From positions 1-32,643 of the forward strand of contig JAHFUH010000011.1 of assembly GCA_023265215.1 (NCBI GenBank): a DNA stretch of 32,643 nt, given 5' to 3'. This document shows, piece by piece, positions 16,172 through 32,607 of the stretch. The notes beneath the pieces are model-generated. The model saw only the letters and a list, made by a program, of their open reading frames with translations. It made no database searches and was not told the origin of the DNA. A program made the translations under genes and the position numbers. Position 1 is the first letter of the stretch. Every line of letters starts with the position of its first letter. The stretch comes from Acidobacteriota bacterium (GTDB taxonomy: Bacteria; Acidobacteriota; UBA6911).

Positions 16172-16184
16172 ATTCCCTCCTGCG

Positions 16185-16850: not shown

Positions 16851-16910
16851 AAACACCACGGATTTCAGGGAAAAACATTCTGCGATAATCCGTGAAATCC
16901 GTGGCGTTTT
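16850..16910. terminator. hairpin of the CCACGGATT family between convergent genes (likely bidirectional terminator)
   Basis: ccacggatttca (16856-16867) pairs perfectly with tgaaatccgtgg (16893-16904). The pairing extends to about 18 bp with one mismatch. An A-run lies on the left and cgtttt on the right. It sits exactly between the cyclophilin stop and the metV stop. Confidence 0.5.
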
Positions 16911-17580
16911 ATTTCACTTGGTGTTCTTTGCGTACAACCTTGCGGGCGCCGCAGTACCAGGCATGACTCCAGTCTTTCGGTGGAATTATTTCTTCAAGCC
17001 TGTCCAGTTGCCCGATGCTTTTTAGCCGGGAATATATCAACTGCCAGGCACAGGGCCTGTCCGAATCCACTTCGCATCGGCTTTCGAGTGAACCGCCGCA
17101 GGGCCCGTTCAATAGCCGTTTGGCGCATCGTGTCACGGGGCAAATTCCTCCGAACTGCGCCAGCATACAGTCGCCGCAACCCAGGCACTTCTCCGTCCAG
17201 ATCGCCTGCTCTTCCAGCACGCCCAGGAATTGGGTGTTGAGCCCGGCGTAAACCGGAATGGCGGGAAACCGTTCCGCAATCGCCTGAACGCCGGCTCCGC
17301 ACCCGAAAGAAACAATCGCCTCAACTTCGGCCGCAGGGCCCGCCAGGTCTTTGATGAATTCATTTTCACACTGGCGCTCAATCGTAACCTGCCGGATTTC
17401 TATAGGGCTGCGGTCGAGTTTGCGTGCCATCCGCATTGCATAGGAAGCGATCCCGACTTCGCGTTCTCCTCCTGCGAGGCACACAGTGACGCAAGTTCCG
17501 CATCCCACAAAAAGAACCTTCTTGTGATCTGCGATTATTTTTTTCAATTCTGTAATTGACTTGGGTGAGGCAACAATCAT
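16909..17580 (-). CDS. metV: MetV: methylenetetrahydrofolate reductase C-terminal-domain (zinc-ribbon/Fe-S) protein
   Basis: CGDCMLAQFGGICPVTRCAKRLLNGPCGGS is the hallmark of the MTHFR_C family. An N-terminal GCGTCVTVC cysteine cluster is also present. The start overlaps the mvhD stop (ATGA). Confidence 0.8.
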   Translation of the reverse strand: MIVASPKSITELKKIIADHKKVLFVGCGTCVTVCLAGGEREVGIASYAMRMARKLDRSPIEIRQVTIERQCENEFIKDLAGPAAEVEAIVSFGCGAGVQAIAERFPAIPVYAGLNTQFLGVLEEQAIWTEKCLGCGDCMLAQFGGICPVTRCAKRLLNGPCGGSLESRCEVDSDRPCAWQLIYSRLKSIGQLDRLEEIIPPKDWSHAWYCGARKVVRKEHQVK

Positions 17581-18038
17581 GATTCTCCTGCACTTTCTTT
17601 ATTTTCAGACGGCTTGAGAGGACTTGGTCCCAGAGCCGTCACTGTCGACACAATTTCCTGCACATGCTGGACAAATTCCGGCGCCATAGCATCCGAGACG
17701 TTCACCATTTTGAGCCGCTCGCTTCCAAGCCCGATCTCATCAAGAATGAGACAGACGCGCTCGGTTCTTTTTCGCGCCCTCAAGTTGCCTTCCATGAAGT
17801 GGCAGCCCCCTTCGAGGCACCCGACCACCAGAACACCATCGACACCTCTTTCAAAGGCATCCAAAATGTATTCCATTTCAATCTTGCCGGTGCAGGGCAT
17901 ATGGACGATCCGCAAGCCGGCGGAGTATTGCATGCGCTGGATGCCCGCAAGATCCGCCGCCGCAAATCCGCAATAGTTGCAACAAAAGGCGATAATTTCA
18001 GGGGTCCAGGCTGTCTGCTCTTTCTCCAGCTGCATCAT
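17577..18038 (-). CDS. mvhD: MvhD (methyl-viologen-reducing hydrogenase delta subunit / FlpD family)
   Basis: IIAFCCNYCG, HMPCTGKIE and VVGCLEGGCHFMEGN motifs. I placed the start at ATG 18038, which overlaps the TGA of the HdrA-like gene (GTATGA). The track extension to 18248 lies inside that gene. Confidence 0.85.
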   Translation of the reverse strand: MMQLEKEQTAWTPEIIAFCCNYCGFAAADLAGIQRMQYSAGLRIVHMPCTGKIEMEYILDAFERGVDGVLVVGCLEGGCHFMEGNLRARKRTERVCLILDEIGLGSERLKMVNVSDAMAPEFVQHVQEIVSTVTALGPSPLKPSENKESAGES

Positions 18039-21000
18039 ACCAACCCTCCTCCAACGAGCAGCTCGTCCAGCATTGCGGTCACGATGCGGCTGTCCTGATG
18101 CTGCAGCATAATAGTTCTGGCAGGGCAAACCGCAACGCAGCTTCCGCATCCCATGCACTTTGCACCCTGGATTTCGGACTTTCGGACATCGTTGATAACG
18201 GGAGCTCCATAAGGGCAAACCTTGACGCAGGTAGCGCAGGCGACGCAATTAACCGGATTGACATGAGCCACCTGCCCGGCGATCTCCAGCTCAGCCTTCG
18301 ACAGAATTCTGGCTGCCCGGCCTGCCGCAGCCTGAGCCTGCGCAATCGTCTCATCGATGAATCGCGGCGAGTGAGCCAAGCCGCACAGGAATTCTCCTTC
18401 ATTGCTCAGATCCACCGGCCGAAGCTTGGAATGAGCTTCCTGGAAAAAGCCATCCGCATTCAAAGCGCTCCGTAGCGTGCCGGATATGGCAGGATTGTCC
18501 CGGCCAGGCGCGATTCCGGTTGAAAGCACAAGCAGGTCCGGCCGCAAAACCAGATCCCGGCCTGTGGCCGCATCGTGAACCGTCACCTTGATTTGTCCGC
18601 CTTCTTCAACGACCTCGGGGTCCTGACCGTCCGGGCGGCGAATGAACTGCACGCCCTGCTCGCGAGCCTTCTGATAAAAAGCATCCCGGAATCCCGGGGT
18701 TCGAATGTCGCGGTACAAAATAACAACGTTGGAACGCGGCTTGCGCTTTTTAATCTCCAGTGCATTTTTGATCGCTTCAGAACAGCAAACCCGGCTGCAA
18801 TATGGATGCTTTTCGTCCCGGCTCTCAACGCACTGAATCATAACAACTGAAGGATTCGGCTTATCCTCCAACTGCGCGATCGGGTTCCCTGCAAGCGCCG
18901 ACTCCAGTTTGGCCTGAGTGATGACGCGAGGGTTTTTGCCGTTGAAATATTTTTGAGTCGATTGCTCTTGTCCCCCGGTTGCAACAATGACGGAGCCATG
19001 CTCGATGGTCTGCTCCAGGCCCGCAATACTCAACACGCTTTTAAAATTGCCCACCTGCCCGGCAATTGCGGCCAATCTCGCATTCAAATGCACGGTAATC
19101 GAAGGCATTGATAGAGTCTTGGATGTCAAATCACGAATCCGCAACTGAACATCATCCCCCTCGAGAGTGCTGCAAAGTTTAGCCGCCTGCCCGCCGAGAC
19201 TCGATTCCTTTTCAACCAGATGCACCTTATAGCCCTGGCCGGCAATGTTTAAAGCCGCGGTCATCCCTGCAATCCCGCCGCCCAGGATCAACGCCGATGC
19301 CGTCACCGGAACTTCCCCGTTCCTCAATGACTTCAGATGGCGAGCCCGCGCGACCGCCATCGACACAAGATCGATCGCTTTTTCTGTTGCAGCGGCCGGA
19401 TCATCCCTGTGCACCCAGGAACACTGATCCCGTATATTCGTCATTGCCAGAAGGTACTGATTCAATCCGCTTTCACGCAGCGTTTCCTGGAAGAGGACCT
19501 CGTGCGTTCTCGACCAGCAGGATGCAATGACGAGCCGATTGAGCCGGTGCTTCCTGATCATTTCCTTGATGTGCTGCTGGTTGGCTTCCGAGCAGGTGTA
19601 GATGCTCGCCTCGGCGTGGCGCACGCCGGGCATTGCCGCCGCTCTTCTGGCAAGCCGCTCTACATCCACAACCGACGAGATATTATGACCGCAATGGCAG
19701 ACGAAGACGCCAATCCGGGGAGCCTCGTCCGCAACATCCCGCTCCCAGGGATATTCATGCCGCTGGATCATGGTGCCGCGAACGGATGTCAGCTGCTCCA
19801 TTGCCGCCGCTGCAGCAGCCGAAGCCTGAACTACCGATTCGGAAATGTCTTTGGGCTCCTGGAAAGCGCCTGCCACGTAGATTCCCGGCCGCGACGCAGC
19901 AAGCGGCGAAAGCCTTCCAGTTCGCGCAAAGCCAAATTCGTTTAAGTCCAGCCCCAGGCGGCCTGCCATTTCCCTGGCTTCGGAAGGAACCTGAATTCCT
20001 GAACTGAGAACCACCAGATCAAATTCCTGTTGCTGCTCGGCGCCCGACTGGCTGATGTAGCACACGCGCGGATTTTTGGTAGCCGGCATTTCCTCAATGC
20101 GGGAGGGAATCGCACGCACGAACCTGATGCCAAACTCCCTCTGAGCCCGGACGATATACTTGTCGAATTCCTTGCCTGATGCGCACACATCGGAGCAGAA
20201 GATCGATACCTCGGGTCTGTCCTTGGCATGCTCCAACGCAGCCATCGCTTCTTTGGCGGCGCTCATGCAGCAGATTGCGGAGCAGTAACCATTCCCGCGT
20301 TCGGAATTCCGGCTTCCGACGCACTGGATAAATGCAATTTTTTTTGCAGGGCCTCTGTCGGATGGCCTATGCACTTTTCCACCCGTCAGCCCTCCAGCCG
20401 AAAGCATCTGCTCAAACTGGACATTCGAAAGCACGTTGGCCCACCGGCCGTGGCCATACTCTTCCCAATGAGCGGCAGGAAATTCTTCAATTCCAGGCGA
20501 GAGGATGATGCTGCCCACATCCAGGTCAAATTCGGAAATCTGCTGGTCCTGAAGCACCGCACCGGCGGTGCAAGCCTGGACACACTGCATGCACTCGCTG
20601 CAAAGGCCGCACGACAGGCAGCGCCTGGCTTCTTTCTCTGCCTGCTCTTTGATATAGCCCGCCTCGATTTCAGAAAAACTCCCCACTCGATCGCCGGTAC
20701 TCATCCGGGAAACAGGAACTCTCTCCTGCTTTGGCGCTTCCGGAGCGGGATTTTTTGCAAAACCGGAGTTCGCTGAATTCGGGGAAGATCCGGCGGAGGC
20801 GTGCGCAACCGATGCGGTGTTGCGAATATAGGCCGCACCACGAATGAAAGCGTCAATCGACTCGGCAGCCTTGTGGCCTTGAGCAATCGAATCCACAACG
20901 GAGGATGGGCCCAGAACCGCGTCACCGCCTGCGAAAACTCCGGAGACGTTTGTAGCTTGAGAAGCATCCGCGCGGATCCTACCGCCGGGCCGCAACTCCA

Positions 21001-22531
21001 GTCCAAGACCGGAAGAATTGAGTCCCTGGCTCAAAGCAACAATGACTGTGTCTGCCGGGAGCGAAGTTATGGCGGAATCGTCATACAGCGGGTCAAACTT
21101 CTTGTATTCGTCAAAGACGCTGGTGCACGCCCGGAAAACCGCAGAAGAAACTTTTCCTTCCGCAGCCTCGAACCTCGTGAGCCCCAGCCTGTGATAAAAA
21201 GCCACTCCTTCCTCGAGAGCCTCGGCCACGTGCCATGCGCGGGCAGGCATTTCCTCGCGGTTCTCGATGCACGCGACACTCACCGATTTCACTCCCGGCA
21301 GGCGCAATGCGCTTCGCGCAGCATCCATGGCCATATCGCTGCCGCCGATCACCAGCACCTCCGGCCCTATTTTCGGAGAGCATTTCGTGTTTACTTCATA
21401 AAGGAATTTCTGTCCTTCCCAAATGCCCGGAGCGTCCTCACCGGGGATACTCATTTTTCGATTGCCCCAAGCGCCGGACGCAACGAATACAGCGCTGAAT
21501 TCATTCTGTGCAGTTCCGGCCGGCTGCGCTTTTGATTTGAGCAGATCTTTAGGCTTGTTGATTACAACGCCGGCCCGGACCTGCACGCCCAAGTTAAGGA
21601 TCTGACGGATATCTTTATCGAGAACTTCTTTGGGGAGACGATAATCGGGAATCCCGTAGCGGAGCATTCCGCCCAGGAGCGGCTGAGACTCGAAAATAGT
21701 AACGCCATAGCCGGCCAGAGCCAGATCGGCGGCGGCTGTCAAACCGGCCGGCCCGCTCCCAATCACAGCGACTCGCACACTCAGCGAAGGGCCCGCCGGA
21801 TTCCAGGCAGGGTATTGATCGGGGTTGGCATCGATGTAATCTGTGACAAACCTTTCGATAGCGCGGGCCGAAACAGCTTCATCAACCTCCCTGCGGTTGC
21901 AGTTGTCTTCACAAGGACGATTACAGATCCGGCCGCAGACGGCCGGAAGCGGGCAGCGCCGGCGGATGAGATCGTACGCTTCCTTGAATTTGCCCGCGGC
22001 AGTCAAGGCTATGTAGCCTTGAACATTCACCTCCGCGGGGCAGGATCCTTTGCAGGGCGCGGGTCCTGGAGATTTTGAAACACCGAAGACATTGGGAATA
22101 GCTTGCGGGTACGGGCGAAAAATCGCCTTGTGCTTGCTCAACCCGCGATCGAACTCGTTTGGCAATTCAACCGGGCACACAGCGGTGCAGTCGCCGCAGG
22201 CATCGCACTTCTTCAAATCCACATAGCGCGGATTCTGGCGGATTTTTACCTTGAAGCTCCCGGGCTGACCGGAAACGCTTTGGATGTCGGCCAGCGTAAT
22301 TATTTCAATGTTCCTATTTCTTGCGACTTCAACCAGCCTCGGCGAGAGGATGCACATGGCGCAGTCGCCGGTGGGAAAAGTCTTATCCAACTGCGACATC
22401 CGTCCGCCGATGGCCGGCGCCGAATCCAGCAGATAGACCTTGAATCCGCTGTCGGCCAGGTCCAGCGCCGCCTGAATTCCAGTGATTCCAGCGCCGCAAA
22501 CCAGCGCCGCTCCAATCGTTTCGTCACTCAT
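18035..22531 (-). CDS. 1498-aa fusion: HdrA-like module with an embedded GltD/NfnB-like NAD(P)H module, then a second HdrA-like module and a C-terminal 2x[4Fe-4S] ferredoxin domain
   Basis: Residues 1-150: GAGITGIQAALDLA, DCAMCILSPRLVE, CDACGDCTAVCP (HdrA). Residues about 155-565: CPAEVNVQGYI...CGRICNRPCEDNCNR, VAVIGSGPAGLTAA, LLGGMLRYGIPDYRLP, VLVIGGSDMAMDAAR, VFAGGDAV (GltD-like). Residues about 637-910: CLSCGLCSECMQCVQAC, FIQCVGSRNSERGNGYCSAICC, GIYVAGAF. Residues about 940-1040: VFVCHCGHNI. Residues about 1078-1410: LILGGGIAGMTAAL, MIQCVESRDEKHPYCSRVCC. Residues 1429-1470: CVACATCVKVCP and CMGCGSCVAVCP. Confidence 0.85.
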   Translation of the reverse strand: MSDETIGAALVCGAGITGIQAALDLADSGFKVYLLDSAPAIGGRMSQLDKTFPTGDCAMCILSPRLVEVARNRNIEIITLADIQSVSGQPGSFKVKIRQNPRYVDLKKCDACGDCTAVCPVELPNEFDRGLSKHKAIFRPYPQAIPNVFGVSKSPGPAPCKGSCPAEVNVQGYIALTAAGKFKEAYDLIRRRCPLPAVCGRICNRPCEDNCNRREVDEAVSARAIERFVTDYIDANPDQYPAWNPAGPSLSVRVAVIGSGPAGLTAAADLALAGYGVTIFESQPLLGGMLRYGIPDYRLPKEVLDKDIRQILNLGVQVRAGVVINKPKDLLKSKAQPAGTAQNEFSAVFVASGAWGNRKMSIPGEDAPGIWEGQKFLYEVNTKCSPKIGPEVLVIGGSDMAMDAARSALRLPGVKSVSVACIENREEMPARAWHVAEALEEGVAFYHRLGLTRFEAAEGKVSSAVFRACTSVFDEYKKFDPLYDDSAITSLPADTVIVALSQGLNSSGLGLELRPGGRIRADASQATNVSGVFAGGDAVLGPSSVVDSIAQGHKAAESIDAFIRGAAYIRNTASVAHASAGSSPNSANSGFAKNPAPEAPKQERVPVSRMSTGDRVGSFSEIEAGYIKEQAEKEARRCLSCGLCSECMQCVQACTAGAVLQDQQISEFDLDVGSIILSPGIEEFPAAHWEEYGHGRWANVLSNVQFEQMLSAGGLTGGKVHRPSDRGPAKKIAFIQCVGSRNSERGNGYCSAICCMSAAKEAMAALEHAKDRPEVSIFCSDVCASGKEFDKYIVRAQREFGIRFVRAIPSRIEEMPATKNPRVCYISQSGAEQQQEFDLVVLSSGIQVPSEAREMAGRLGLDLNEFGFARTGRLSPLAASRPGIYVAGAFQEPKDISESVVQASAAAAAAMEQLTSVRGTMIQRHEYPWERDVADEAPRIGVFVCHCGHNISSVVDVERLARRAAAMPGVRHAEASIYTCSEANQQHIKEMIRKHRLNRLVIASCWSRTHEVLFQETLRESGLNQYLLAMTNIRDQCSWVHRDDPAAATEKAIDLVSMAVARARHLKSLRNGEVPVTASALILGGGIAGMTAALNIAGQGYKVHLVEKESSLGGQAAKLCSTLEGDDVQLRIRDLTSKTLSMPSITVHLNARLAAIAGQVGNFKSVLSIAGLEQTIEHGSVIVATGGQEQSTQKYFNGKNPRVITQAKLESALAGNPIAQLEDKPNPSVVMIQCVESRDEKHPYCSRVCCSEAIKNALEIKKRKPRSNVVILYRDIRTPGFRDAFYQKAREQGVQFIRRPDGQDPEVVEEGGQIKVTVHDAATGRDLVLRPDLLVLSTGIAPGRDNPAISGTLRSALNADGFFQEAHSKLRPVDLSNEGEFLCGLAHSPRFIDETIAQAQAAAGRAARILSKAELEIAGQVAHVNPVNCVACATCVKVCPYGAPVINDVRKSEIQGAKCMGCGSCVAVCPARTIMLQHQDSRIVTAMLDELLVGGGLV

Positions 22532-22629: not shown

Positions 22630-25251
22630 CTACTTTTTCGATGACGCCAATATTGAAAGCTTCACCGCACCAACTTTTCTATAAACCTCATGAGGCGCTT
22701 TGACCTCGCCGTCCACCGTCAGCAAATCCTGAATTTTTATCCCGAAAAGACGCTCGTTCTCGACCAGATAAGGACGGATCAGCCGCCAGTCCTTGTCGCT
22801 CAGGTCCGAAAAAACTCCGCCGTTCAATTGCCGTTCCACTACCTGTCGGCGCGGATCGCGAATGTAAATCGCGCCCCCGCTGGCCAGCGAAAAAAGGTTG
22901 CTGCCGGGATAAGGCGCCTGCTGGGGTTTCATGCGGCCGCGCTGGTCGAATTCGACGCCGTTCAGGATTACAAAACCACCCCCTGCCAACGGGTCGCCCG
23001 CCATGAAGGATTCCGCCAGAAAATCCAGGCACGTTCCGTTAATGACCACGCGCGGCCGCCCGACGGCATTGATCAGCGGCCGGCCGGCAGCGTTGCCCAA
23101 AACGTACACTTCCCCGCCCTTGGCCCCGTACATAAACGTCTGGCCGACATCGCCGTGAATCACAAGCCTGCCGCTTTTGGCAATCTGGGCGACCTGATCT
23201 TGCGCATTTCCATGAATGCATATCTGAAGGCCATCCATTCCGCTCGCGGTGTAGTCCCCGTTGGAACCATACAGGTCAATGCGAACGTCGTTTGTTTCCG
23301 CACCAAGGCCGGCTCCGTGAAATCGCTGACCTCTCAGGCGGTAAACAATGAATCTCTTCCAGCCCGCCTGGTAAGCCTTCCGGAGAAGAACGGCGTCGCA
23401 ATCGTCCCCTTCCGGCGGGAAGCCCTGCGCATCGATGATCAAGATTTCTTCTCCCGCCCTCGGACCCGCCAACCGATCACGCGTAGCCCAGTTTACCCGG
23501 CGCCAGAAGCGGCTCACCGGCTCGCCAAAAAGCGGGGCGCCGTCCAGCAGCTCTTCAAGCGCGTCTTCCGCAACCCGGATCACCGTGGCGCCGCGCTTGT
23601 CGCCCGTGTAGAAGCGCCGATCATGCAGCATGGTCAGCACTTCGATAGCGGTGGATCGGGATTTCGCATTATCCGCGCCCCGGACTACCAGTTTGCAAAA
23701 CCGCTGCAGGTCGCCGGCGGACCAGGAAGGCAGATCCATCGCATATGTGAAGAGGCTCTCCACATTTCCTTTCTGCAGCCATTGGTTTACAAGCTCTTTC
23801 AGCGGATCAGCGGTATTCTTGTCATATACTTGAACAACTCCAAGATCGCAACGGACTGTGCCGGAGTCGAGCGCAACCGGCCGGCCGAATTTGTCGGTGC
23901 ACGTGAGCTTTTTTCCGCCATTCTGCGAATCCACGCTGAAGATAAAAGCCCCTCCGTCCGTGCTTGAGCCGCCGCGCGCGTTCCAATACTTGTCGGCCAC
24001 TGGACAGAAGCGCGGATCTTCCCGGGCAAGGCTTCTCAAAGTGGCGTCGATAGCCTGCTTCTCGGAGCAGATCAGGCCGATCTGCACCTCCCCGTCGTCG
24101 GAAAGCGCAAAAACCTGCGGGCGCAGCATTGCCGTGTCGGTGATGCCAAGCAGCTGGACTTTTCCCTTGTCCGGCTGGCTGCGTGCAATAATGAAAAACC
24201 ATGGGCCGTCAGGCGAGGCATGCATGTGGGTTGCCTGAATTTGCCGGTAGATTGTCTGTTTTTCCGGGGGCAACTGATCAAAATCCAGCTCAGTCGTGGG
24301 CGCCAGCGCTTCGATGATGTATTCCAGCGGGTATTTGTAAACCCGATCCCATAAATCAAACAACTGGACCGAAACCTCGGTATCGGTAAGAAACTGCTGG
24401 CGAATGTTGCGCTGCTTCAGATATTCGCAGACGGAATAGTAGTTGGCGAAATCACCATTGTGCACCAGGGCTTCGTTTACCCCCACGAATGGATGAGCCC
24501 CGCCCGGGTGCCAGACGCGTCCCTTGGTGGGGTAGCGTTGGTGCGCGATCCACGCATGCGCCTTGAAATCCTGGAGTTGATAATACTCAACATTCTGCTC
24601 GGCGTAGCCGACCATTTTGAAAACGAGCAGGTCTCGGCCGTGCGATAGCACGAAGGCGCGCTTTTCTCCGAGGGATGTGTAGAATTCATCGTTCAGACTG
24701 TAGGAATTCCGCCAGATGAATTCGTCCTCCAGATCCCGAGGCGAAAGGCTCCCCAGCCCCGTCTGTTCGGCAAATTTTTTCAGGACCTCGGTCTTCACAC
24801 GAACGATATAACGGTGAACGTCCGGCGGGCAAACCTCCAGGCCGGGAAGATCCCGGTAGTCATCGATATGAGGCTGCCTGGTCGACAATGCCACTTCAAA
24901 ATTAGGCAGTATGTATTTGCGCTCAAGTTCAGCGTGGCAAGCCGGGTCCAGCAGGGCGATCTGGAGAAGATAATAATCATTCAAAACTTCGCGAGGCACG
25001 CCCATCTGCTCAGGTGTCAGACCGACGGCGGCAATGCCTCCGCCCTTGCCGTTGCCCCGGTTCTGCATCTGAACGGACGGCTCGTAGATGAACCGTCCCG
25101 CCAGCGGCACGGTGCAGGCGAAACCGGTAACACCGCATCCCCCCTCTTCAGCTGCCTTCGGAAGACGCAAGTCGCGCCCGGAATAGATTTGTGACCTCGT
25201 CGCAAGCAATCGTTCGGCAATTTCGTTCACGTTATTGTTTCCATCGATCAT
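22630..25251 (-). CDS. glutamate synthase-type class II glutamine amidotransferase domain fused to a GXGXG (GltB C-terminal) domain
   Basis: A candidate Ntn nucleophile sits in EEGGCGVTGFA after a leader of about 38 aa. HQRYPTKG and HNGDFANY resemble GATase_2 blocks. From about residue 633: RFHGAGLG, IHGNAQDQVAQIAKSGRLVIHGDVGQTFMYGAKGGEVYVLGNAAGRPL, VINGTCLDFLAESFMAG (GXGXG repeats). There is no clear RBS at ATG 25251, so the exact start is uncertain. Confidence 0.8.
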   Translation of the reverse strand: MIDGNNNVNEIAERLLATRSQIYSGRDLRLPKAAEEGGCGVTGFACTVPLAGRFIYEPSVQMQNRGNGKGGGIAAVGLTPEQMGVPREVLNDYYLLQIALLDPACHAELERKYILPNFEVALSTRQPHIDDYRDLPGLEVCPPDVHRYIVRVKTEVLKKFAEQTGLGSLSPRDLEDEFIWRNSYSLNDEFYTSLGEKRAFVLSHGRDLLVFKMVGYAEQNVEYYQLQDFKAHAWIAHQRYPTKGRVWHPGGAHPFVGVNEALVHNGDFANYYSVCEYLKQRNIRQQFLTDTEVSVQLFDLWDRVYKYPLEYIIEALAPTTELDFDQLPPEKQTIYRQIQATHMHASPDGPWFFIIARSQPDKGKVQLLGITDTAMLRPQVFALSDDGEVQIGLICSEKQAIDATLRSLAREDPRFCPVADKYWNARGGSSTDGGAFIFSVDSQNGGKKLTCTDKFGRPVALDSGTVRCDLGVVQVYDKNTADPLKELVNQWLQKGNVESLFTYAMDLPSWSAGDLQRFCKLVVRGADNAKSRSTAIEVLTMLHDRRFYTGDKRGATVIRVAEDALEELLDGAPLFGEPVSRFWRRVNWATRDRLAGPRAGEEILIIDAQGFPPEGDDCDAVLLRKAYQAGWKRFIVYRLRGQRFHGAGLGAETNDVRIDLYGSNGDYTASGMDGLQICIHGNAQDQVAQIAKSGRLVIHGDVGQTFMYGAKGGEVYVLGNAAGRPLINAVGRPRVVINGTCLDFLAESFMAGDPLAGGGFVILNGVEFDQRGRMKPQQAPYPGSNLFSLASGGAIYIRDPRRQVVERQLNGGVFSDLSDKDWRLIRPYLVENERLFGIKIQDLLTVDGEVKAPHEVYRKVGAVKLSILASSKK

Positions 25252-25472: not shown

Positions 25473-27041
25473 CTACTCCAAGTAACAAAGGACGTCGCTG
25501 CGGCCGCGCAGTTCGCGGATTGACGACACTCCGAGCCGGCTCAACACACCAATCATCTGTTCGTGCCAGGCATTCTGCAGGTTAATCAATCTCTGGGTCG
25601 CCCACTCGAGGCCCATCAAATCCATCAGTTCGGGATCAGTCGACGCAATTCCGCGCGGGCAGCCTCTGCCACTTTCGCAGCAGGCGCAGCGCACGCAGCC
25701 AAGCGCCACCATCTCCGCCGTGCCGATCACGACCCCATCGGCTCCCAGCGCAATTGCTTTGAGCGCATCGTAGGCCGTGCGGATCCCGCCGGAGGCTATC
25801 AGCGTAATCTTCTCCCGGATGCCCTCAGCGACCAGAAACTTATGCACCTTGGGAATGGCGAACTCGATGGGCATTGCAATATTTTTCTTCGCAATGTCCG
25901 GCGCCGCGCCCGTACCTCCATAGCTGCCGTCCAGGTGAATGATGTGAGCACCGGCGTAATAGCTTCCCACCGCAACCATGTCTACATCGGTAGGTGTTGA
26001 TACCTTCACGCTCACCAGGCACCTGGGATTGACTTCCTTGATCCAGTCCAGGTGCTTTTTGTGATCTTCCACGCTGTAAACGCTGTGGAATGGAAAAGGA
26101 CTGAACAATGCATTTCCGGGAACTGCCCCTCGCATTCGCGCAACCGCCGGAGTGTTCTTGTCGCCCAGCAGATGTCCGCCGAGCCCCGGTTTGGCACCCT
26201 GGGCATATTTGAATTCCACAATCCTCACGCGCTGAATCGTCTCCTCGCGTACGCCGAAAAGACCGGTTGCAACTTGGGTGATCATGTGGTCGTCATAAGG
26301 CATGAGCCTGTCGGGATACCCCCCCTCCCCAGTGCAGCTGAAGCTGTTCCATGCAACCGCAGCCCGGGCTTTTGCAAGAATCGTGTGAATGCTGACGGAC
26401 CCGAAGCTCATTCCCCCGCCATAGACCGGTATGTCGATGTGAATCTGCGGCCGGCCATCCTCACGGCGATTCAGATCCAACCCCGTATCAATCGCTTCGG
26501 CTGCAACCCGCGATCCGCCTCCATCCAGCCCGGGAATTTCAAACTTAAACCGGATCTGGTCAAACCCTCCCCCAGAAGCACCGTGTCTGAACTCCAGATG
26601 CGAAGGCGGAGTGTGCCCGGTCTCCGCTTCATGCCATGTGGACAGGATCAGATCGCTGGACCAGCGCGGATCTCCAAAGCACTCAACATTGGGATTCAGG
26701 CTCATGACCAGCGCTTTTTGCGGACACTGGCTGATGCAGTCGCTGCCGGCCTCTGTGCAAGCCGGGCCGATGCAAAGGTAATCCTGAGGCCGCGACATTA
26801 AGGCGTACCCCTCCGGCTTGACGTGCACGCCGTATCCGCACACTTCAACGCAACGGCCGCAAGAAATGCATTTGGCCAGCCGGTCGATTTTGTACTTTCC
26901 GATCGCATTGCGGTATCGCTCAGGCACAGGCCGGATTTTCCGTTCGATATCCTCCTGCGGCCAATCGCTGTGGCCCGGCCTTTGCGGCAGCGCTTCTTCC
27001 TGAATTTCCAGATCGGACTTAATTGCTGTGGTTGTGGTCAT
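25473..27041 (-). CDS. glutamate synthase FMN-binding (GltB domain 2) subunit with N-terminal Fe-S cysteine motifs, archaeal-type
   Basis: CISCGRCVEVCGYG and CIGPACTEAGSDCISQCP cysteine motifs. The canonical substrate/FMN blocks are present: FKYAQGAKPGLGGHLLG, DGSYGGTGAAP, ASGGIRTAYDALKAIALGADGV. A cluster-like LGCVRCACCESGRGCPRGIAS is also present. Confidence 0.85.
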   Translation of the reverse strand: MTTTTAIKSDLEIQEEALPQRPGHSDWPQEDIERKIRPVPERYRNAIGKYKIDRLAKCISCGRCVEVCGYGVHVKPEGYALMSRPQDYLCIGPACTEAGSDCISQCPQKALVMSLNPNVECFGDPRWSSDLILSTWHEAETGHTPPSHLEFRHGASGGGFDQIRFKFEIPGLDGGGSRVAAEAIDTGLDLNRREDGRPQIHIDIPVYGGGMSFGSVSIHTILAKARAAVAWNSFSCTGEGGYPDRLMPYDDHMITQVATGLFGVREETIQRVRIVEFKYAQGAKPGLGGHLLGDKNTPAVARMRGAVPGNALFSPFPFHSVYSVEDHKKHLDWIKEVNPRCLVSVKVSTPTDVDMVAVGSYYAGAHIIHLDGSYGGTGAAPDIAKKNIAMPIEFAIPKVHKFLVAEGIREKITLIASGGIRTAYDALKAIALGADGVVIGTAEMVALGCVRCACCESGRGCPRGIASTDPELMDLMGLEWATQRLINLQNAWHEQMIGVLSRLGVSSIRELRGRSDVLCYLE

Positions 27042-27247: not shown

Positions 27248-28651
27248 TCATGCACATGCCTGTTCCTGCGGCACTCGAATCAGATCTCCGAATGATTCCT
27301 TCTCAATTTCTTCCATGAAAATTGCTCGGCCCATTTCGCCGCGCAGCCGGCGCACCTCGCGGATGCCCATGGCTCCAAGAACTTCAATCAATTGGCTGTG
27401 CCATGCGCCAATCAGGTTCACTATTCTCTGGGCCGCATATTCGCTGTCCATGGAATCAATCCCGACGGGACAACCGGCCGGCGAATGTCCGCCGCGGCAC
27501 ACCCTGCAGCCGAGCGCAACCAGCAAAGCGGTATCCGCTGTCACAAGATCGGCGCCACAGATAATCGCCTTGGCCATGTGTTCGGCCAGCGCAATGCCCC
27601 CTGAAATTATCAGCGTGATTTCATCTCGCAGCCCGCTGTCAACAAGACGCGTGTGAATCTCGCGCAGCGCATCCTTGATATGGCGTCCCGACAAATCGCG
27701 TCCGTGCAGATCGGCGCACAAATGAAACACTTTCAACCCGCTCCCCGACAGCTCGATGATGCGTTCAGCAGACTTGGGACCAATCGCCGCCCGGACAGAG
27801 AGGATCGCCTCCGGACGCATGCTCCGTATCCGGTTTGCCGTGCCCAGAATCTCCGGGCCGTCGAGCAATTGAATCATCGGACTGGCGCTGTGGATCACAT
27901 TGCTGAAATCCGGAATGTCGTCGCCGGCAAAAATTGGAATAACCGAAGGCAGGAGTTCCGGCTGCAGGCGCGCGGCTTCCTTCGCAAACATCACGGCAAA
28001 TGTCTTCAGCTCTTTTGCAGCCAAAGCGCGACTGTGGGCAAGCTCAAATTGATGGGTGGGCCATTGCGGAATGTCCAGGATTGCCGGAACCTGGACTTCC
28101 ACCAGGTTTAGGACCGGGGTAAGCATCCCGCCTTCCGGAGTAAAGCTCAGCCGCATCGGCTTTGGACCAATGTCGACAGATGTGGAAATATATTCACGGC
28201 CGTGAATGCCATCGCGCGTCGGCCGGACGATTTCCGACATGTCCGTCCAGATGGAATCAAATCCGGGCCCGTGAAAGGGGCCTCGATAGCCGGCGCCCGA
28301 CACTGGAATTTTTCCCGAGTCGGCTTGCGTCCATGTGCTGGAGAGAATGTCCGGCTTCCAATACTCATCACCCATTTCCAGAAATTCCGGATTCACGGAA
28401 AGGCTCAGCAAACCTTTGGTGCAGCCCTGAACGCAGGAAAGGCAGGCTTTGCACTCGTACAGGGTCTGGGTGGCTGCGAGAGGATCCCGGTTGTGAGCCG
28501 ACTCGTGTTTGTAGACGTCGTAATTGCATCGGGGCTTCACGCAGTTGCTGCAACGCGAGCAATCCTCGCGCCAGTCGACGCCTCCGAATTTGCCGATCCG
28601 GTAAAACCGGCCGGGAGTTGGGACTGTATGGATATGGTATCGGTCAGGCAT
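27248..28651 (-). CDS. divergent glutamate-synthase FMN-domain paralogue with N-terminal 2x[4Fe-4S]-type motifs, lacking the canonical substrate loops
   Basis: CSRCSNCVKPRC and CKACLSCVQGC motifs. GFDSIWTDMSEIVRPTRDG...TSVDIG, ISGGIALAEHMAKAIICGADLV and LGCRVCRGGHSPAGCPVGI are collinear with the neighbouring canonical subunit. No QGAKPGxGG or GGTGAAP block is present. Confidence 0.7.
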   Translation of the reverse strand: MPDRYHIHTVPTPGRFYRIGKFGGVDWREDCSRCSNCVKPRCNYDVYKHESAHNRDPLAATQTLYECKACLSCVQGCTKGLLSLSVNPEFLEMGDEYWKPDILSSTWTQADSGKIPVSGAGYRGPFHGPGFDSIWTDMSEIVRPTRDGIHGREYISTSVDIGPKPMRLSFTPEGGMLTPVLNLVEVQVPAILDIPQWPTHQFELAHSRALAAKELKTFAVMFAKEAARLQPELLPSVIPIFAGDDIPDFSNVIHSASPMIQLLDGPEILGTANRIRSMRPEAILSVRAAIGPKSAERIIELSGSGLKVFHLCADLHGRDLSGRHIKDALREIHTRLVDSGLRDEITLIISGGIALAEHMAKAIICGADLVTADTALLVALGCRVCRGGHSPAGCPVGIDSMDSEYAAQRIVNLIGAWHSQLIEVLGAMGIREVRRLRGEMGRAIFMEEIEKESFGDLIRVPQEQACA

Positions 28652-28787: not shown

Positions 28788-29678
28788 CTATTTCGCAATC
28801 CGGCCTAAAACAATCGCAGCGGTTGACTCGCAACCCCCGCTGAGAATATGAATCCCACGAACTCCGGCAACTTCCTTCAGCCGTGCGGCCATATCCGAAG
28901 CTATAGCCGCGCCCTCCTGAGCCTCGTCTGCCGCATTGCCGATCCGATCGATGACATGCTCTGCGATCGGTCCATACATCTGGCTCTGCTGCAGGGCTTT
29001 GGCTTGAGCCACGCCGGTTAGCGGCAATACACTGGCGATAATCGCAGTCCGCCTATCAAGGCCGGCCGCGCGCACCTCATCCATCCACAGGCAAAAACCT
29101 TCGAGGTCGAATACGGCTTGAGTTATGACAAAATCCGCCCCTGCCACAATCTTCTTTTTAAACCGGAGAAGATTCAGATCCATCGGACGCAAATAAGGAT
29201 GAGCCACTGCTCCAACCTGGAACTTCAGCTTTGGCTCAATTTCTTTGCCGTCGAATGCCGATCCGTCAAGAATCATTCTCTTTAAAGCCTGAGTGAATTG
29301 AACCGAATCCAGGTCATTCGCCGCTGCAGCCTGCGGGCAAACGCCCATCGATTGATGCTGCCCGCTCATGCAGAGGATCGCGGAAAAATCCAGAGCTGCT
29401 GCTCCCAAAGCATCGCTTAAAAGCGCAAGTCGATTGCGATCGCGGGTCGCCATCGATAATACAATGCCAGTATGGCCCGCATTTCGCAGGATCCGAGCCG
29501 TTGAAAATGCCGAACTGCGAATTTCATCAGGATTGTCCGCAATCACAATGGCGTCGAGACCCGAAGGGAGCGCAGACGAAAGATTCCGGACGGCCTTGAA
29601 ATCAGAACCGCGAGGGGGCAGGCATTCAGCCGTCAATATTAGGCGGTTGGAATTCAACGCCTGTGCAAAGCTGTTCAT
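28788..29678 (-). CDS. metF: methylenetetrahydrofolate reductase MetF (anaerobe type)
   Basis: The TIM-barrel MTHFR pattern includes SMATRDRNRLALLSD (compare the TCRDRNR block of MetF), ADNP, and AGADFVITQAVFD. The start overlaps the upstream mvhD-like stop (ATGA). Confidence 0.8.
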   Translation of the reverse strand: MNSFAQALNSNRLILTAECLPPRGSDFKAVRNLSSALPSGLDAIVIADNPDEIRSSAFSTARILRNAGHTGIVLSMATRDRNRLALLSDALGAAALDFSAILCMSGQHQSMGVCPQAAAANDLDSVQFTQALKRMILDGSAFDGKEIEPKLKFQVGAVAHPYLRPMDLNLLRFKKKIVAGADFVITQAVFDLEGFCLWMDEVRAAGLDRRTAIIASVLPLTGVAQAKALQQSQMYGPIAEHVIDRIGNAADEAQEGAAIASDMAARLKEVAGVRGIHILSGGCESTAAIVLGRIAK

Positions 29679-30190
29679 TTTCCCTCCTGCAATAAATCCC
29701 CTTGCGTCTGAAGGGGACTGGAAGGAAAAGTCTGAAGAGCCTGAAGCACCTGATCACGAATAGCCTCCAACTGGCTGTTCAGTGACTCCGATCCGTTCGT
29801 CCCAGGCTTTCTATGCGCAGCCAGCGCCAGATCCTCAGCGGCAGAACCCGGAAGATACGAGAGCAACAAACGCTCATCACCCAGCCCGATCTCTTTCAGG
29901 ATCGACCGGATGTAATCCACCCGGCGCGCGCAGCGCCTGCTCCCCTCTATGTAATGGCAGTTGTCTTCCTGGCAGGCAACCACCGAAACAATGCTCGCCC
30001 CCGACTCAAACGCCCTCAGGACATGCTCAGGCTGAAGACGGCCCGTGCACGGAACAACCACCTGCTGAAAATTGCCGGGCCAGTTGAAATCGGGGACACT
30101 GGGCCGCGCCCGCCCGGCAGAAGACAACTCCTTGCCAGGCCGCGCACAATTGGCGCAAATAAAAACGGTAACGCCGGAAATGCTTTCCAC
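29675..30190 (-). CDS. second MvhD/FlpD-family iron-sulfur protein
   Basis: VFICANCAR, VVPCTGRLQPEHVLRAFESGA and VVACQEDNCHYIEGS follow the FlpD pattern. The GTG start is preceded by AGGAGGG. Confidence 0.8.
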   Translation of the reverse strand: MESISGVTVFICANCARPGKELSSAGRARPSVPDFNWPGNFQQVVVPCTGRLQPEHVLRAFESGASIVSVVACQEDNCHYIEGSRRCARRVDYIRSILKEIGLGDERLLLSYLPGSAAEDLALAAHRKPGTNGSESLNSQLEAIRDQVLQALQTFPSSPLQTQGDLLQEGK

Positions 30191-30206: not shown

Positions 30207-30533
30207 CTATGCTGCCGACTCGGAGCAATCAGTCCGAGGCAGAACAGTACCATCCGCATCCAGCTGGTATTCCTCACACTGCAGCACGCCGCAGCGCGCA
30301 TTCGGGAATCCGCAATTTTCCACATGCAGGCAATTGGCGCATAAACCCATGCCGGCCGCGTCCTTGGGATCCATTGCCACCCTACCTTCGGAAACAGACG
30401 GTTTCTGGGCAAAAGGCTGAACCGAAAATTCTTCGCACTGAATAATTTCGAGTTTAGTGCTTCGCCTGAGCATGCAGGTGGGGTCATGCTCACATGTTTC
30501 ACAAAGACCGTAATACTTTGGCATTTCAGCCAT
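30207..30533 (-). CDS. 108-aa cysteine-rich protein with an internal duplication; function unknown
   Basis: There are two repeats of G-L-C-x2-C-x-H-x3-C-x(9-13)-QCEE-aromatic: GLCETCEHDPTCMLRRSTKLEIIQCEEF and GLCANCLHVENCGFPNARCGVLQCEEY. A purine-rich RBS (GGGGAAAGGA) lies upstream. It is the first gene after the sigma-54 promoter. Confidence 0.6.
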   Translation of the reverse strand: MAEMPKYYGLCETCEHDPTCMLRRSTKLEIIQCEEFSVQPFAQKPSVSEGRVAMDPKDAAGMGLCANCLHVENCGFPNARCGVLQCEEYQLDADGTVLPRTDCSESAA

Positions 30534-30579: not shown

Positions 30580-30595
30580 AGCAAAAAATATGCCA
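30580..30595 (-). promoter_or_regulatory. sigma-54 (-24/-12) promoter
   Basis: The minus strand reads TGGCAT-ATTTT-TTGCT, with GG and GC at exactly the consensus spacing of TGGCACG-N4-TTGCW. The GC lies 48 nt upstream of ATG 30533, and a sigma-54 activator gene is immediately upstream. Confidence 0.65.
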
Positions 30596-30798: not shown

Positions 30799-32607
30799 CT
30801 ACAAAATCCCGTAGTGGTCCAGTTTTTTTCGGAGAGTCACGCGGCTTAGGTTGAGAAGATCTGCCAGTTCCCTTTGGCTGTATTGACTCGATTCCACAAG
30901 GTAACGCAGGAGAGTTTCCTCGACTGTTTCTATCAGGGTGTCCCGAATCCCTGCTGGATTGCTTCGTCCTGCAAGAAACCGGATAACCGCCTGGCGAAGC
31001 TCCGATTTGGGATCCAGGGCGGCGCTCGAATCAGCGATCGCGGGAGACGGAGGAGTACTTTCCCGGATTTCCTCAGGAAGGAGATCGAGAGAGACAGTGT
31101 TGTCGGGACTCATCACGACGGCGCGTTCAATGCAGTTTTCCAGTTCCCGAACATTTCCGGGCCAGGAATGTGCCAGCAGGGCGTCCAAAGTTTCTCGCGG
31201 CACGACCGTGACCTGGCGGCCGGCTTCCCGGTTGTATTTTTCCAGGAAATGGTCCACCAGCAGCGGGATGTCTTCACGGCGCTCGCTCAGCGGAGGGAGT
31301 TGGATGGGGATTACGTTCAGCCGGTAAAACAGATCATGCCGGAACCTTCCGGCTTTGATTTCAGAGCGCAGGTCACGGCCGGTTGCAGCCACGATGCGGA
31401 CGTCCACAGCCAGGGTCCGGCTTGACCCTACCGGCTCCAGCTGGCGCTCCTGCAGGACCCGAAGAAGCTTCACCTGCAGCCGCGGGCTCATTTCGCTGAC
31501 TTCGTCCAGGAAAAGGGTGCCGCCTTCGGCAGCCCTGAACCTGCCTTCGTAATCGCGCACTGCCCCGGTAAATGCGCCTTTCACGTGGCCGAACAGCTCT
31601 GTTTCGAGCAGCGTTTCAGGCAAAGCGCCGCAATTGACCTTAACCAGCGGGCCGGCGGCGCGGTCGCTGTTGTAGTGCACGACATTCGCGATCAGTTCTT
31701 TGCCTGTGCCGGTCTCTCCAGTTATCAGCACCGAGGATCGGGACCGGGCAGCAGTTGCCGCCACGCCAAGCAGGCGCCGGATAGCCGCGCTGCCGCCGAC
31801 AATGCTGTCGACGCGATAGGTCCGGCGCAGTTCTTCTCCCCTCCGGGTCAGCCGGTCGAGGTCCCGGACTTCGATCATCTCGCCGTCCTGCGCAACGAAT
31901 CCCTCGTCAAGATCCAGCGGCTGCGGCACGCCTATCGCCGCGCTTCGTCCCGCGGCCTTGTGCACGGTAAGGGCGCGCTGCCCGTTCGAGAGCGAAATTT
32001 CCATAACAACCTGGGTAATGTGCCGCACCTTAGCCAGAAATGCTTCGCTGTGGGCTTGGGTTTCGATCAGCCAGTAAGCAAGAGTGGAAAGGTCGTACAG
32101 CCTGGGGCAGAGATGGCCGAACAGGCGCACAATCCTGTTTTCGTCCCCCCAGAGATCCAGCATACCGGTAAGGGAGTCAAAAACGTAGTTCGCCGATTGG
32201 CCGCCGCGCGTCCCCACTTCAATCAAAGCCTGCTCAAGACGGGAAGGGTCGGCGGGATCGGCAATGTGGACGGGGGCATGAACGGCGTCGCGCACAGGAT
32301 CGTCGAAAAATTTCAGGAACATCTCGTCGGAGTTGCCTTTGCCGGACGAAAAACAGTCAATCAGCGAAAACCGCCCGGGGGACATAAGCTTGGCATACTT
32401 CGATGCGATCGTTTGAGGCGAGCGGTTGAAGCTTACATAAACGACCGGAACGTTCCCCTTTTCGCATGCGGCAACGAAACGTGAAATAAAATGATCTCCC
32501 GCCACGCCGGAATCAATTTCCCACACGAGGTTATCGCCTGCGATCACCCCGCCGATGGCTTTATCCACTTCCGGTATGCCGGTTGTAGGCTTGATCTTAG
32601 CTGGCAT
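30799..32607 (-). CDS. sigma-54-dependent Fis-family transcriptional activator with an N-terminal degenerate KaiC/RecA-like domain
   Basis: AAA+ core: VLITGETGTGKE (Walker A), GAFTGA, GGTLFLDEV (Walker B). C-terminal HTH: SQRELADLLNLSRVTLRKKL. The N-terminal 230 aa or so follow the KaiC/RadA pattern (TGIPEVDKAIGG, VVYVSF, YVFDSLTGML, ALTVHKAAGRS), but DSGVAGDH stands where the P-loop GxxGxGKT would be. Confidence 0.9.
   Translation of the reverse strand: MPAKIKPTTGIPEVDKAIGGVIAGDNLVWEIDSGVAGDHFISRFVAACEKGNVPVVYVSFNRSPQTIASKYAKLMSPGRFSLIDCFSSGKGNSDEMFLKFFDDPVRDAVHAPVHIADPADPSRLEQALIEVGTRGGQSANYVFDSLTGMLDLWGDENRIVRLFGHLCPRLYDLSTLAYWLIETQAHSEAFLAKVRHITQVVMEISLSNGQRALTVHKAAGRSAAIGVPQPLDLDEGFVAQDGEMIEVRDLDRLTRRGEELRRTYRVDSIVGGSAAIRRLLGVAATAARSRSSVLITGETGTGKELIANVVHYNSDRAAGPLVKVNCGALPETLLETELFGHVKGAFTGAVRDYEGRFRAAEGGTLFLDEVSEMSPRLQVKLLRVLQERQLEPVGSSRTLAVDVRIVAATGRDLRSEIKAGRFRHDLFYRLNVIPIQLPPLSERREDIPLLVDHFLEKYNREAGRQVTVVPRETLDALLAHSWPGNVRELENCIERAVVMSPDNTVSLDLLPEEIRESTPPSPAIADSSAALDPKSELRQAVIRFLAGRSNPAGIRDTLIETVEETLLRYLVESSQYSQRELADLLNLSRVTLRKKLDHYGIL

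Follow-up and report, generated by a model that had tools for sequence, protein, structure and literature searches.

The 32,643-nucleotide (nt) stretch of DNA analysed here (contig JAHFUH010000011.1 of the Acidobacteriota bacterium assembly GCA_023265215.1; hereafter the window) encodes, on its reverse strand, a 1498-amino-acid (aa) fusion protein that is almost certainly of the HdrL type. The protein consists of two HdrA-like halves, the first of which is interrupted by an NfnB/GltD-like NAD(P)H module, and its gene, hdrL, stands in an operon with genes for two MvhD/FlpD-family proteins, for the methylene-tetrahydrofolate (methylene-THF) reductase proteins MetF and MetV (MetFV) and for a split glutamate-synthase-like (GltS-like) module. 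We consider it probable that HdrL is the NADH-coupled flavin/Fe–S core of a soluble multi-subunit complex with the MvhD adaptors, MetFV and the GltS-like module. The architecture of the protein has already been described, as HdrL in 2009 and as NfnB/GltD-inserted and fused pseudo-heterodimeric HdrA in 2022 and 2025; the new point is the conserved operon context, an undescribed variant of MetFV–Hdr type systems. A preliminary description of this DNA, made from the letters alone, had implied more novelty for the architecture than these precedents leave and had missed the operon, which tells more about the protein.

Domain architecture of HdrL

The hdrL open reading frame (ORF) begins with ATG and runs for 1498 codons with zero internal stops, and every motif that the preliminary description had quoted from it is in place. 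The first half opens with GAGITG (residues 13–18), DCAMCILSPRLVE (56–68) and CDACGDCTAVCP (109–120); the insert contains CGRICNRPCEDNCNR (199–213), GSGPAGL (258–264), GGMLRYGIPDYRLP (287–300), VIGGSDMAMDAAR (394–406) and VFAGGDAV (532–539); CVGSRN (737–742), YCSAICC (749–755) and VFVCHCGHNI (942–951) follow the insert; and the second half contains GGGIAGMTAAL (1084–1094) and CVESRDEKHPYCSRVCC (1234–1250). Alignment to solved HdrA structures and domain searches give the following division, in which the first line gives the gene and the others its parts.

18035..22531 (stop included), reverse strand: hdrL, 1498-aa HdrL-type fusion protein (ORF list; Pfam, NCBIfam and PDB matches; 120 full-length homologues)
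22073..22531, reverse strand: HdrA half 1, part a, residues 1–153 (residues 9–153 align to HdrA 146–290; 5odc, 172 bits)
20606..22072, reverse strand: NfnB/GltD-like insert, residues 154–642, ~490 aa (between HdrA 290 and 292)
19727..20605, reverse strand: HdrA half 1, part b, residues 643–935 (643–860 align to HdrA 292–509)
19307..19726, reverse strand: HdrA half 2, N-terminal Fe–S domain, residues 936–1075, with C945, C947, C980 and C1005 (HdrA alignment)
18287..19306, reverse strand: HdrA half 2, divergent thioredoxin-reductase-like FAD domain, residues 1076–1415 (6tjr_A match, 104 bits)
18038..18286, reverse strand: C-terminal 2×[4Fe–4S] ferredoxin domain, residues 1416–1498 (Pfam Fer4 at 1420–1475; HdrA C-terminal alignment)

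The presence of a GltD/NfnB-like NAD(P)H module within the first HdrA, as claimed in the preliminary description, is supported by all three databases searched. Pfam placed Fer4_20 at residues 158–235, Pyr_redox_2 at 253–552 (E 2.5e-45), FAD-binding signatures near residues 10 and 1080 and Fer4 families (2×[4Fe–4S]) at 1420–1475. In NCBIfam, GltD-superfamily models covered residues 158–673 (E 5e-142, PRK12771) and HdrA/HdrA2 models matched in four stretches (E 2e-276). Sequence matches in the PDB had E values of 1e-155 to 1e-163 for HdrA chains and of 1e-65 to 1e-87 for chains of the NfnB type. The curated NCBIfam cut-offs for HdrA and HdrA2 are missed by HdrL (919 bits versus 1100, 674 versus 1400 and 650 versus 1300), and the insert misses the cut-offs of the GltD/NfnB-type equivalog models (474 versus 516 for PRK12771, 287 versus 472 for TIGR01316 and 158 versus 448 for TIGR01317). 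On these scores the insert is best regarded as a superfamily domain of the GltD/NfnB kind and not as an orthologue of those families. Among solved chains, it scores 216–297 bits with NfnB-type proteins and 150–152 bits with true GltD, and residues 154–642 have no HdrA match.

The extent of the insert had been put at ~410 aa (nt 20839–22069, residues 155–565), which is the GltD core without its linker. The full insert is longer, at ~490 aa, as it consists of the Fer4_20 2×[4Fe–4S] domain (158–235), an FAD and NAD(P)H Rossmann pair (253–552) and a linker of ~75 aa. In the alignment to 5odc, the insertion site falls between the two cluster motifs of the ferredoxin domain that is inserted in HdrA. 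The NAD(P)H module is thus nested in a ferredoxin domain that is itself inserted in a flavin domain. The HdrA fold does not resume at CVGSRN, as had been proposed, but upstream at CLSCGLCSECMQCVQAC (638–654), in the second half of the inserted ferredoxin domain. An extra, invariant cysteine pair, C638 and C641 (RRCLSCG; residues 636–641, nt 20609–20626), stands just before the second cluster motif of that domain and resembles the RCLxC start of GltD-type cluster domains.

The two halves of HdrL share out the parts of one HdrA between them. Part a of half 1 contains the FAD GxGxxG motif, Cys57 and Cys60, together with the inserted ferredoxin domain's first CxxCxxCxxxCP motif; part b contains the second such motif (C644–C654), the thioredoxin-reductase-like cluster motif C737/C750/C754/C755 and the C-terminal FAD motif. 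Solved HdrA chains (5odc, 8rvu and 7bkb) match the flavin domain of half 1 at 144–180 bits per segment, and alignment to them reveals neither the HdrA N-terminal domain nor the C-terminal ferredoxin in this half. Both of these belong to half 2, in which residues 936–1090 align to HdrA 2–156 (134–142 bits). VFVCHCGHNI, which had been assigned to the first HdrA, accordingly lies in the N-terminal domain of the second half. The divergent FAD domain of half 2 has its own cluster motif (C1234/C1245/C1249/C1250), lacks the inserted ferredoxin domain and any Cys197 equivalent, and carries Asp and Leu at the Cys57 and Cys60 positions. The second HdrA module of the preliminary description is therefore real as a second half but not full; it is a complementary partial unit. 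The HdrA domains and Cys197 are distributed complementarily over both halves, and no single unit holds all four domains.

The flavin cores of the two halves are 28–31% identical, half 1 is methanogen-HdrA-like, and half 2 is better matched by 6tjr_A; on these grounds a recent internal duplication was rejected, and the halves are best viewed as old paralogues. Selenocysteine, for which the preliminary description had seen no candidate, was likewise rejected: the frame is free of stops, and an ordinary cysteine, Cys60, occupies the place of HdrA Cys197. In a Kyte–Doolittle scan with 19-residue windows, a crude test, a single window barely exceeded 1.6, at a Rossmann strand near residue 1076; by this measure HdrL would be a soluble protein without transmembrane segments.

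Conservation and the nicotinamide site

When HdrL was compared with 5.8 billion proteins, more than 7500 matches were obtained, of which the best 120 were used for the alignment and for the conservation figures given here. These homologues are 1437–1548 aa long, cover 97–100% of the query and are 62–90% identical to it, most of them 62–70%. All 40-odd cluster cysteines and the three GxGxxG motifs are invariant or nearly so, and the insert cluster cysteines C160, C164 and C203–C211 are invariant. To follow the two insert junctions, residues 1–935 were compared, with no filter, with 1.84 billion cluster representatives at 50% identity. Approximately 70 of the top 150 representatives span both junctions in one aligned stretch, and the proteins are of ~900–1140 aa (a single HdrA with the insert), 1270–1350 aa or 1470–1530 aa. 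This spread of lengths, together with the junction-spanning clusters, indicates that the nested architecture is widespread and diverse. We conclude that hdrL is a real gene under strong purifying selection. The possibility of an assembly chimera, which the preliminary description had wished to see checked, or of a fused pseudogene was rejected as having a negligible chance of being correct, given 120 full-length homologues from independent assemblies, the 59 loci described below, the ~70 of 150 clusters across the junctions and the invariant cysteines.

The nicotinamide specificity site was located at residues 421–423 (nt 21263–21271; ACIE(423)N), after the second Rossmann strand of the insert. 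The site reads C-[LI]-E in 104 of the 120 homologues, the window protein included, and Y-R-R in the other 16, and the three positions switch as a block, which argues for a working nicotinamide site. Y-R-R is the arrangement at the NADPH site of GltD and NfnB. By general Rossmann-fold rules, the nicotinamide site of the window protein would be functional and NADH-preferring.

The hdrL operon

Nine genes on the same strand make up the operon, in the order small Cys-rich protein, FlpD, MetF, two GltB-FMN-like Fe–S proteins (GluS; FMN, flavin mononucleotide), a glutamine amidotransferase (GATase) fused to a GXGXG domain, HdrL, MvhD and MetV. The genes other than hdrL are as follows, in order of transcription (MTHFR, methylene-THF reductase).

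30207..30533, reverse strand: small Cys-rich ORF, 108 aa (two C-x2-C...QCEE[FY] repeats)
29675..30190, reverse strand: second MvhD/FlpD-family protein (flpD2), 171 aa (Pfam FlpD, E 7e-26; position conserved)
28788..29678, reverse strand: metF-like MTHFR, 296 aa (Pfam MTHFR; MTHFR half of PRK08645 in NCBIfam, E 4e-39; Escherichia coli MetF alignment)
27248..28651, reverse strand: degenerate FMN-domain paralogue, 467 aa (Pfam, Cys pattern and alignment)
25473..27041, reverse strand: GltB FMN-domain protein, 522 aa (Pfam Glu_synthase, E 7e-90)
22630..25251, reverse strand: class-II GATase + GXGXG fusion, 873 aa (Pfam and homologue alignment)
17577..18038, reverse strand: mvhD, FlpD family, 153 aa (Pfam FlpD, E 6e-43; DNA read)
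16909..17580, reverse strand: metV, MTHFR C-terminal/DUF5981, 223 aa (Pfam PF12225, E 3e-37; DNA read)

Upstream of hdrL the genes are separated by gaps of 98–222 bp or overlap, and flpD2 overlaps the start of metF. Downstream, the coupling is tighter: the mvhD ATG overlaps the hdrL stop (ATGA), and the metV ATG overlaps the mvhD stop likewise. MvhD is encoded next after HdrL in essentially all related loci. Because the neighbour downstream of metV is a cyclophilin gene on the opposite strand, metV is the last gene of the operon; the small Cys-rich ORF, which has no family match, is its probable first. The metF and metV genes are separated by ~11 kb of operon and thus bracket the whole cluster. 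The domain anatomy of HdrL, the conservation of the cofactor motifs, the translational coupling and the conserved gene order were all observed directly.

The GltS-like module apparently has what a catalytically intact enzyme requires. In the amidotransferase, Cys39 (GGCGVTGF) is invariant, and the 38 residues before it have a mean identity to the window residue of 0.48, compared with 0.88 after it. The same pattern is expected of a cleaved propeptide that exposes the N-terminal nucleophile, as in GltB. This protein is better conserved than HdrL, with the top 120 of 7700 matches 78–85% identical; its central ~290 residues (331–620) have no family match, yet are 76% conserved. The 522-aa FMN-domain protein combines an N-terminal 2×[4Fe–4S]-type Cys motif with a GltB-type cluster motif and a conserved catalytic region, and it aligns to Azospirillum GltB 857–1168 (177 bits), including the KxAQGAKPGxGG stretch and the cluster motif. 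Its 467-aa paralogue has kept the ferredoxin-like N terminus and the FMN-phosphate/cluster C-terminal third, whereas the substrate-binding middle of the barrel is missing; it is probably a non-catalytic electron-transfer subunit. With Cys39, the FMN active-site stretch and the cluster motif all present, the module as a whole looks catalytically intact.

No separate gltD was found in the operon by the ORF list or Pfam, the sole GltD-like domain being the HdrL insert. No NfnA/PyrK-like gene was found either, and an Nfn-type transhydrogenase was rejected on account of the absence of an NfnA-like gene.

Distribution of the operon

A scan centred on HdrL, with one genome per species, returned 59 loci, all of them from metagenome-assembled genomes (MAGs). 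Those with HdrL at 52–73% identity belong to Acidobacteriota/Bryobacteraceae, Anaeromyxobacter and other Myxococcota, Chloroflexota, Planctomycetota and Actinomycetota, and, wherever the flank suffices, they show the order FlpD–MetF–GluS–GluS–GAT/GXGXG–(HdrC–HdrB)–HdrL–MvhD–MetV. In most of these loci a gap of ~1.5 kb before hdrL holds hdrC and hdrB. More distant loci at 35–44% identity (Desulfobacca, Syntrophobacterales and Desulfobacteraceae) have hdrC–hdrB–hdrL with or without mvhD–metV and lack the GltS-like genes.

An independent metagenome sample was centred on the GATase/GXGXG gene and contained 50 loci with downstream sequence and 28 loci with enough sequence upstream. The gene is followed by hdrC in 44 loci and by hdrL in 5, that is, by one or the other in 49 of 50, and 27 of the 28 loci carry the four upstream genes. 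The operon is conserved in at least five phyla, mostly in peat and wetland samples. The window represents a minority sublineage that is sigma54-linked and lacks hdrCB.

Several loci depart from the common order. In L062, a 102-kb metagenome contig (5323–13399), the order is FlpD–MetF–GluS–GluS–GAT/GXGXG–MetV, with no hdrL or mvhD and with metV 106 bp after the amidotransferase gene. L124, a distant variant at 59% identity, has FlpD–MetV–MetF adjacent, upstream of the GltS-like genes. L061, which lacks hdrCB, encodes a shortened HdrL (12669–16634, 1321 aa) that has lost the equivalent of residues 696–833, including the CVGSRN...YCSAICC cluster motif; in methanogen HdrA the missing cluster leads to HdrC (PMC9012536). 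An HdrL of this type (variants of 1321–1334 aa) is also encoded on a JGI 3300075153 contig. Our literature search, which was limited in reach and is no proof of absence, found no description linking Hdr/MetFV genes with a split glutamate synthase operon.

Proposed electron path and alternatives

In methanogen HdrA, electrons from MvhD enter through the C-terminal ferredoxin domain and bifurcate at FAD; one exit leads through the flavin-domain cluster to HdrBC, and the other through the N-terminal cluster, which is completed by Cys197 of the partner, and then by way of the ferredoxin domain that is inserted, to ferredoxin (PMC9012536). A single HdrL chain would imitate such an HdrA heterodimer, with half 1 contributing the Cys60 ligand and the inserted ferredoxin domain, and since it has one copy of each element the result would be a single asymmetric route. 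In the most economical reading, the former ferredoxin exit has been wired to an NADH-type flavin module, and NADH enters there. Electrons would pass from NADH to the FAD of the GltD-type module, on through that module's two clusters and both clusters of the inserted ferredoxin domain, and then to the flavins of HdrA. There the path would fork, and one branch would run by way of the C-terminal ferredoxin domain and on to MvhD, MetV, the MetF flavin and methylene-THF, and the other through the second FlpD to the Fe–S domains of the two GltB-like proteins, FMN and 2-iminoglutarate.

Our confidence differs between the parts of this scheme. That HdrL forms one functional unit with MvhD and MetFV is very likely, and the functional inclusion of the GltS-like proteins is a good deal less secure, though still likely; the full electron path as drawn is tentative and may well be wrong in some of its steps. 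What we infer is that the proteins form a complex, which way electrons flow in it, which substrates it uses and whether a low-potential third acceptor is reduced. The preliminary description regarded the NAD(P)H module as a built-in electron donor site, a view that it shares with published proposals for GltD-inserted HdrA (PMC12054007); that NADH is the donor rather than the product is, likewise, our inference.

Several observations weigh against an NADH-coupled core that serves both MetFV and a glutamate synthase. Both proposed acceptors are more positive than NADH, the 2-oxoglutarate/glutamate couple more so still than methylene-THF, and HdrA machinery would be unneeded for simple reduction; either the machinery serves to distribute electrons as a hub or it reduces a low-potential acceptor at the same time. 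Pfam scans found no CCG-domain ORF, and thus no hdrB or hdrC, in the 32.6-kb window, unlike in 44 of 50 relatives. Because hdrL and mvhD are missing from L062, HdrL must be dispensable to the MetF/GltS-like/MetV unit. The insert is closer to NfnB-type proteins than to true GltD and is also present in Desulfobacca-type HdrL loci without GltS-like genes; its origin is therefore not that of a beta subunit of GltS. Finally, the relatives are all metagenome assemblies, and the roles assigned to HdrL proteins so far are proposals.

With the same subunits, the complex could perform true flavin-based bifurcation, in which electron transfer from NADH to methylene-THF, to 2-oxoglutarate plus glutamine or to both drives the reduction of a low-potential carrier (ferredoxin or flavodoxin; an HdrBC substrate in relatives). 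Strict conservation extends to three flavin sites and to the full complement of HdrA-type clusters, which is more than a simple wire needs. A scheme of this kind has been proposed for Moorella MetFV–HdrABC–MvhD, and thermodynamics permit it, with NADH at −320 mV and methylene-THF at −200 mV (PMC5861303). However, the GltD module occupies the ferredoxin exit, structure predictions of GltD-inserted HdrA suggest that ferredoxin access is blocked (PMC12054007), the operon encodes neither a ferredoxin nor a flavodoxin, and the window has no hdrBC. We regard bifurcation as possible but doubtful.

The system might instead run in the oxidative direction, so that methyl-THF, and possibly glutamate, is oxidized and the GltD-like module reduces NAD+, a confurcation that organisms oxidizing methyl groups might require. 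HdrL–MvhD–MetV, accompanied by HdrCB, is also encoded in Desulfobacca and Syntrophobacterales MAGs, the cultured relatives of which oxidize acetate by a reverse Wood–Ljungdahl pathway. Moreover, reverse operation has been proposed for the HdrA–NfnB fusions of ANME-1 (PMC9012536). The invariant amidotransferase nucleophile, by contrast, points to glutamine-dependent synthesis, which is practically irreversible, and no Wood–Ljungdahl genes were found in the 32.6-kb window; this direction seems unlikely to us.

A primary partnership between MetFV and the GltS-like module is also conceivable, but quite improbable; the two would exchange electrons with each other or receive them from ferredoxin, and HdrL–MvhD, accompanied or not by HdrBC, would be an optional addition that tunes them to the NAD pool. 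The 106 bp of L062 in the place where hdrL–mvhD would sit, the adjacent FlpD–MetV–MetF of L124, the bracketing of the cluster by metF and metV and the loss of 138 half-1 residues with a cluster motif from L061-type HdrL would fit such an arrangement. On the other side stand the occurrence of HdrL or HdrC after the GltS-like genes in 49 of 50 loci and the strong purifying selection on HdrL. A sulfur role, with NADH electrons passing via HdrBC to a DsrC-type or other heterodisulfide, has been proposed for D. autotrophicum HdrL1, which adjoins dsrABC (PMC2702500), and for the HdrABC/HdrL of Syntrophobacter, found in abundance only when sulfate is present (PMC5947623), but is highly improbable here, as the 32.6-kb window has no hdrBC, dsr or other sulfur-metabolism genes and every close relative has MetFV and GltS-like neighbours.

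Implications

The question of what HdrL does dates from 2009, and that of the second partner reaction of the MetFV–HdrABC–MvhD enzyme from 2014. The strictly conserved, multi-phylum operon ties HdrL to methylene-THF reduction and to glutamine-dependent amination of 2-oxoglutarate, which turns a vague redox-hub annotation into specific assays. The most far-reaching version of our proposal is one soluble super-complex in which HdrL splits or distributes NADH electrons between MetFV and the GltS-type module while ferredoxin (in relatives, an HdrBC substrate) is co-reduced; we hold this to be speculative. If true, it would be an Hdr-type electron-bifurcating glutamate synthase/methylene-THF reductase, which would give HdrL a function and the MetFV–Hdr enzymes a concrete partner reaction. 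It would also mean that bacteria of anoxic peat and wetland soils commonly assimilate nitrogen and one-carbon units by an unrecognized route that saves energy. Peat and wetland metagenomes are rich in this gene set, with thousands of homologues, so that an answer would matter for how nitrogen and one-carbon units are metabolized in anoxic soils poor in nitrogen.

Regulation and other genes in the window

Two further features lie upstream of the operon.

30580..30595, reverse strand: sigma54-type promoter-like element TGGCATATTTTTTGCT, 47 nt upstream of the small ORF
30799..32607, reverse strand: sigma54-dependent transcriptional activator, 602 aa (Pfam)

The number of sigma54 motifs in the window (2 found versus 1.25 expected) is by itself not above chance, and the element is credible because its position is conserved across loci. 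A sigma54-type motif occurs upstream of flpD2 in all 10 loci of the sublineage without hdrCB (L001, L007, L008, L012, L029, L060, L061, L062, L064 and L066) and in none of 53 others, and in 9 of the 10 it stands just before the small ORF. The small Cys-rich ORF itself was detected in 9 of the 10 loci and in 0 of the 53. The activator gene is conserved upstream in L001, L008, L012, L029, L060, L061, L064 and L066; the N-terminal 264 aa of the activator have no Pfam match. L060 has a gene for an ammonium transporter ~2.5 kb upstream of that for the activator, a weak hint at nitrogen control.

Elsewhere in the window, the forward strand encodes 2Fe–2S and FAD subunits of the xanthine/CO-dehydrogenase family (3092–4784), a PF02441 flavoprotein (4885–5466), a tannase/feruloyl esterase (6778–8340) and a short-chain dehydrogenase (8337–9122). 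These genes (3092–5466 and 6778–9122) are unrelated neighbours and together point to the degradation of aromatic compounds or esters. On the reverse strand, a 424-aa ORF that begins with TTG (13870–15144) has no Pfam match.

Comparison with known systems

The name HdrL was introduced with the genome of Desulfobacterium autotrophicum HRM2, for a protein that fuses heterodisulfide reductase with glutamate synthase, has an NADH site and is followed by mvhD (Strittmatter et al. 2009, PMC2702500). It was proposed there, with no experiments, that NADH electrons go towards sulfite reduction (PMC2702500), and the term was reused for Syntrophobacter fumaroxidans Sfum_0824 (PMC5947623) and in Desulfurivibrio dismutans. 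The literature bears out both the likeness to D. autotrophicum HdrL noted in the preliminary description and its statement that the function is biochemically unestablished: we found no orthologue with defined biochemistry there. The window and D. autotrophicum have in common a large soluble HdrA-like protein with an NADH domain resembling the glutamate synthase small subunit, followed by mvhD. However, the D. autotrophicum copies lie beside dsrABC, fdh or hdrA and two have selenocysteine, whereas the window copy has MetF/MetV and GltS-like neighbours and a cysteine at the Cys197 position. HdrL1–3 are likened here by description; the nearest Desulfobacteraceae MAG copies are 36–44% identical to the window HdrL.

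The MetFV–HdrABC–MvhD enzyme of Moorella thermoacetica oxidizes NADH and reduces methylene-THF, has two FAD in HdrA and a second acceptor that is unidentified (Mock et al. 2014, via PMC5861303). This enzyme and the window share a link to NADH and a single cluster with metF, metV, mvhD and a two-flavin HdrA made of fused halves, of which one has lost the N-terminal domain and the other Cys197 (PMC9012536). The fused HdrA type likened to that of Moorella has the opposite order, with the N-terminal domain in the first half and Cys197 in the second (PMC9012536). The Moorella cluster includes hdrCB and has neither GltS-like genes nor a second FlpD; the window is the reverse on each count. We found no mention of a GltD/NfnB insert in Moorella HdrA, which was compared by its published description.

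In the MvhAGD–HdrABC complexes (5odc, 8rvu and 7bkb), the N-terminal domain, the C-terminal ferredoxin and the MvhD partner are recognizable counterparts of elements in the window. Unlike these complexes, the window has no hydrogenase and no HdrBC, the domains are spread over two non-identical halves, and an NADH module would occupy the ferredoxin exit. The insert shares its fold signature (2×[4Fe–4S], FAD and NAD(P)H Rossmann domains) with NfnAB and GltBD, and a GltB-like set is present in the window operon. This GltB-like enzyme differs from that of GltBD in being split over three proteins, with extra ferredoxin-like domains and a fused GATase–GXGXG chain, and the specificity site of the insert is of the predicted NADH type and not of the Y-R-R NADPH type.

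Precedents for the insert and for the fused halves are archaeal. In the HdrA of ANME-1, according to Chadwick et al., the inserted ferredoxin domain carries an NfnB-like insertion of 500 aa (PMC9012536). A 2025 survey distinguished type II and type III HdrA and proposed two effects of the GltD domain, namely that it obstructs the site for ferredoxin and that it supplies the flavin with electrons from NADH (PMC12054007). Type III HdrA and ANME-1 HdrA9–11 have a ~500-aa NfnB/GltD-like module at the same place as the window insert, and in type II and the fused HdrA3–4 the halves act as their own heterodimeric partner, as they would in the window HdrL. These archaeal proteins are rare (nine type III sequences in 624 genomes), have either the insert or the second half, and occur in the context of Mvh, Fdh or HdrBC. 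By contrast, bacterial HdrL has both, and in the window its context is MetFV/GltS.

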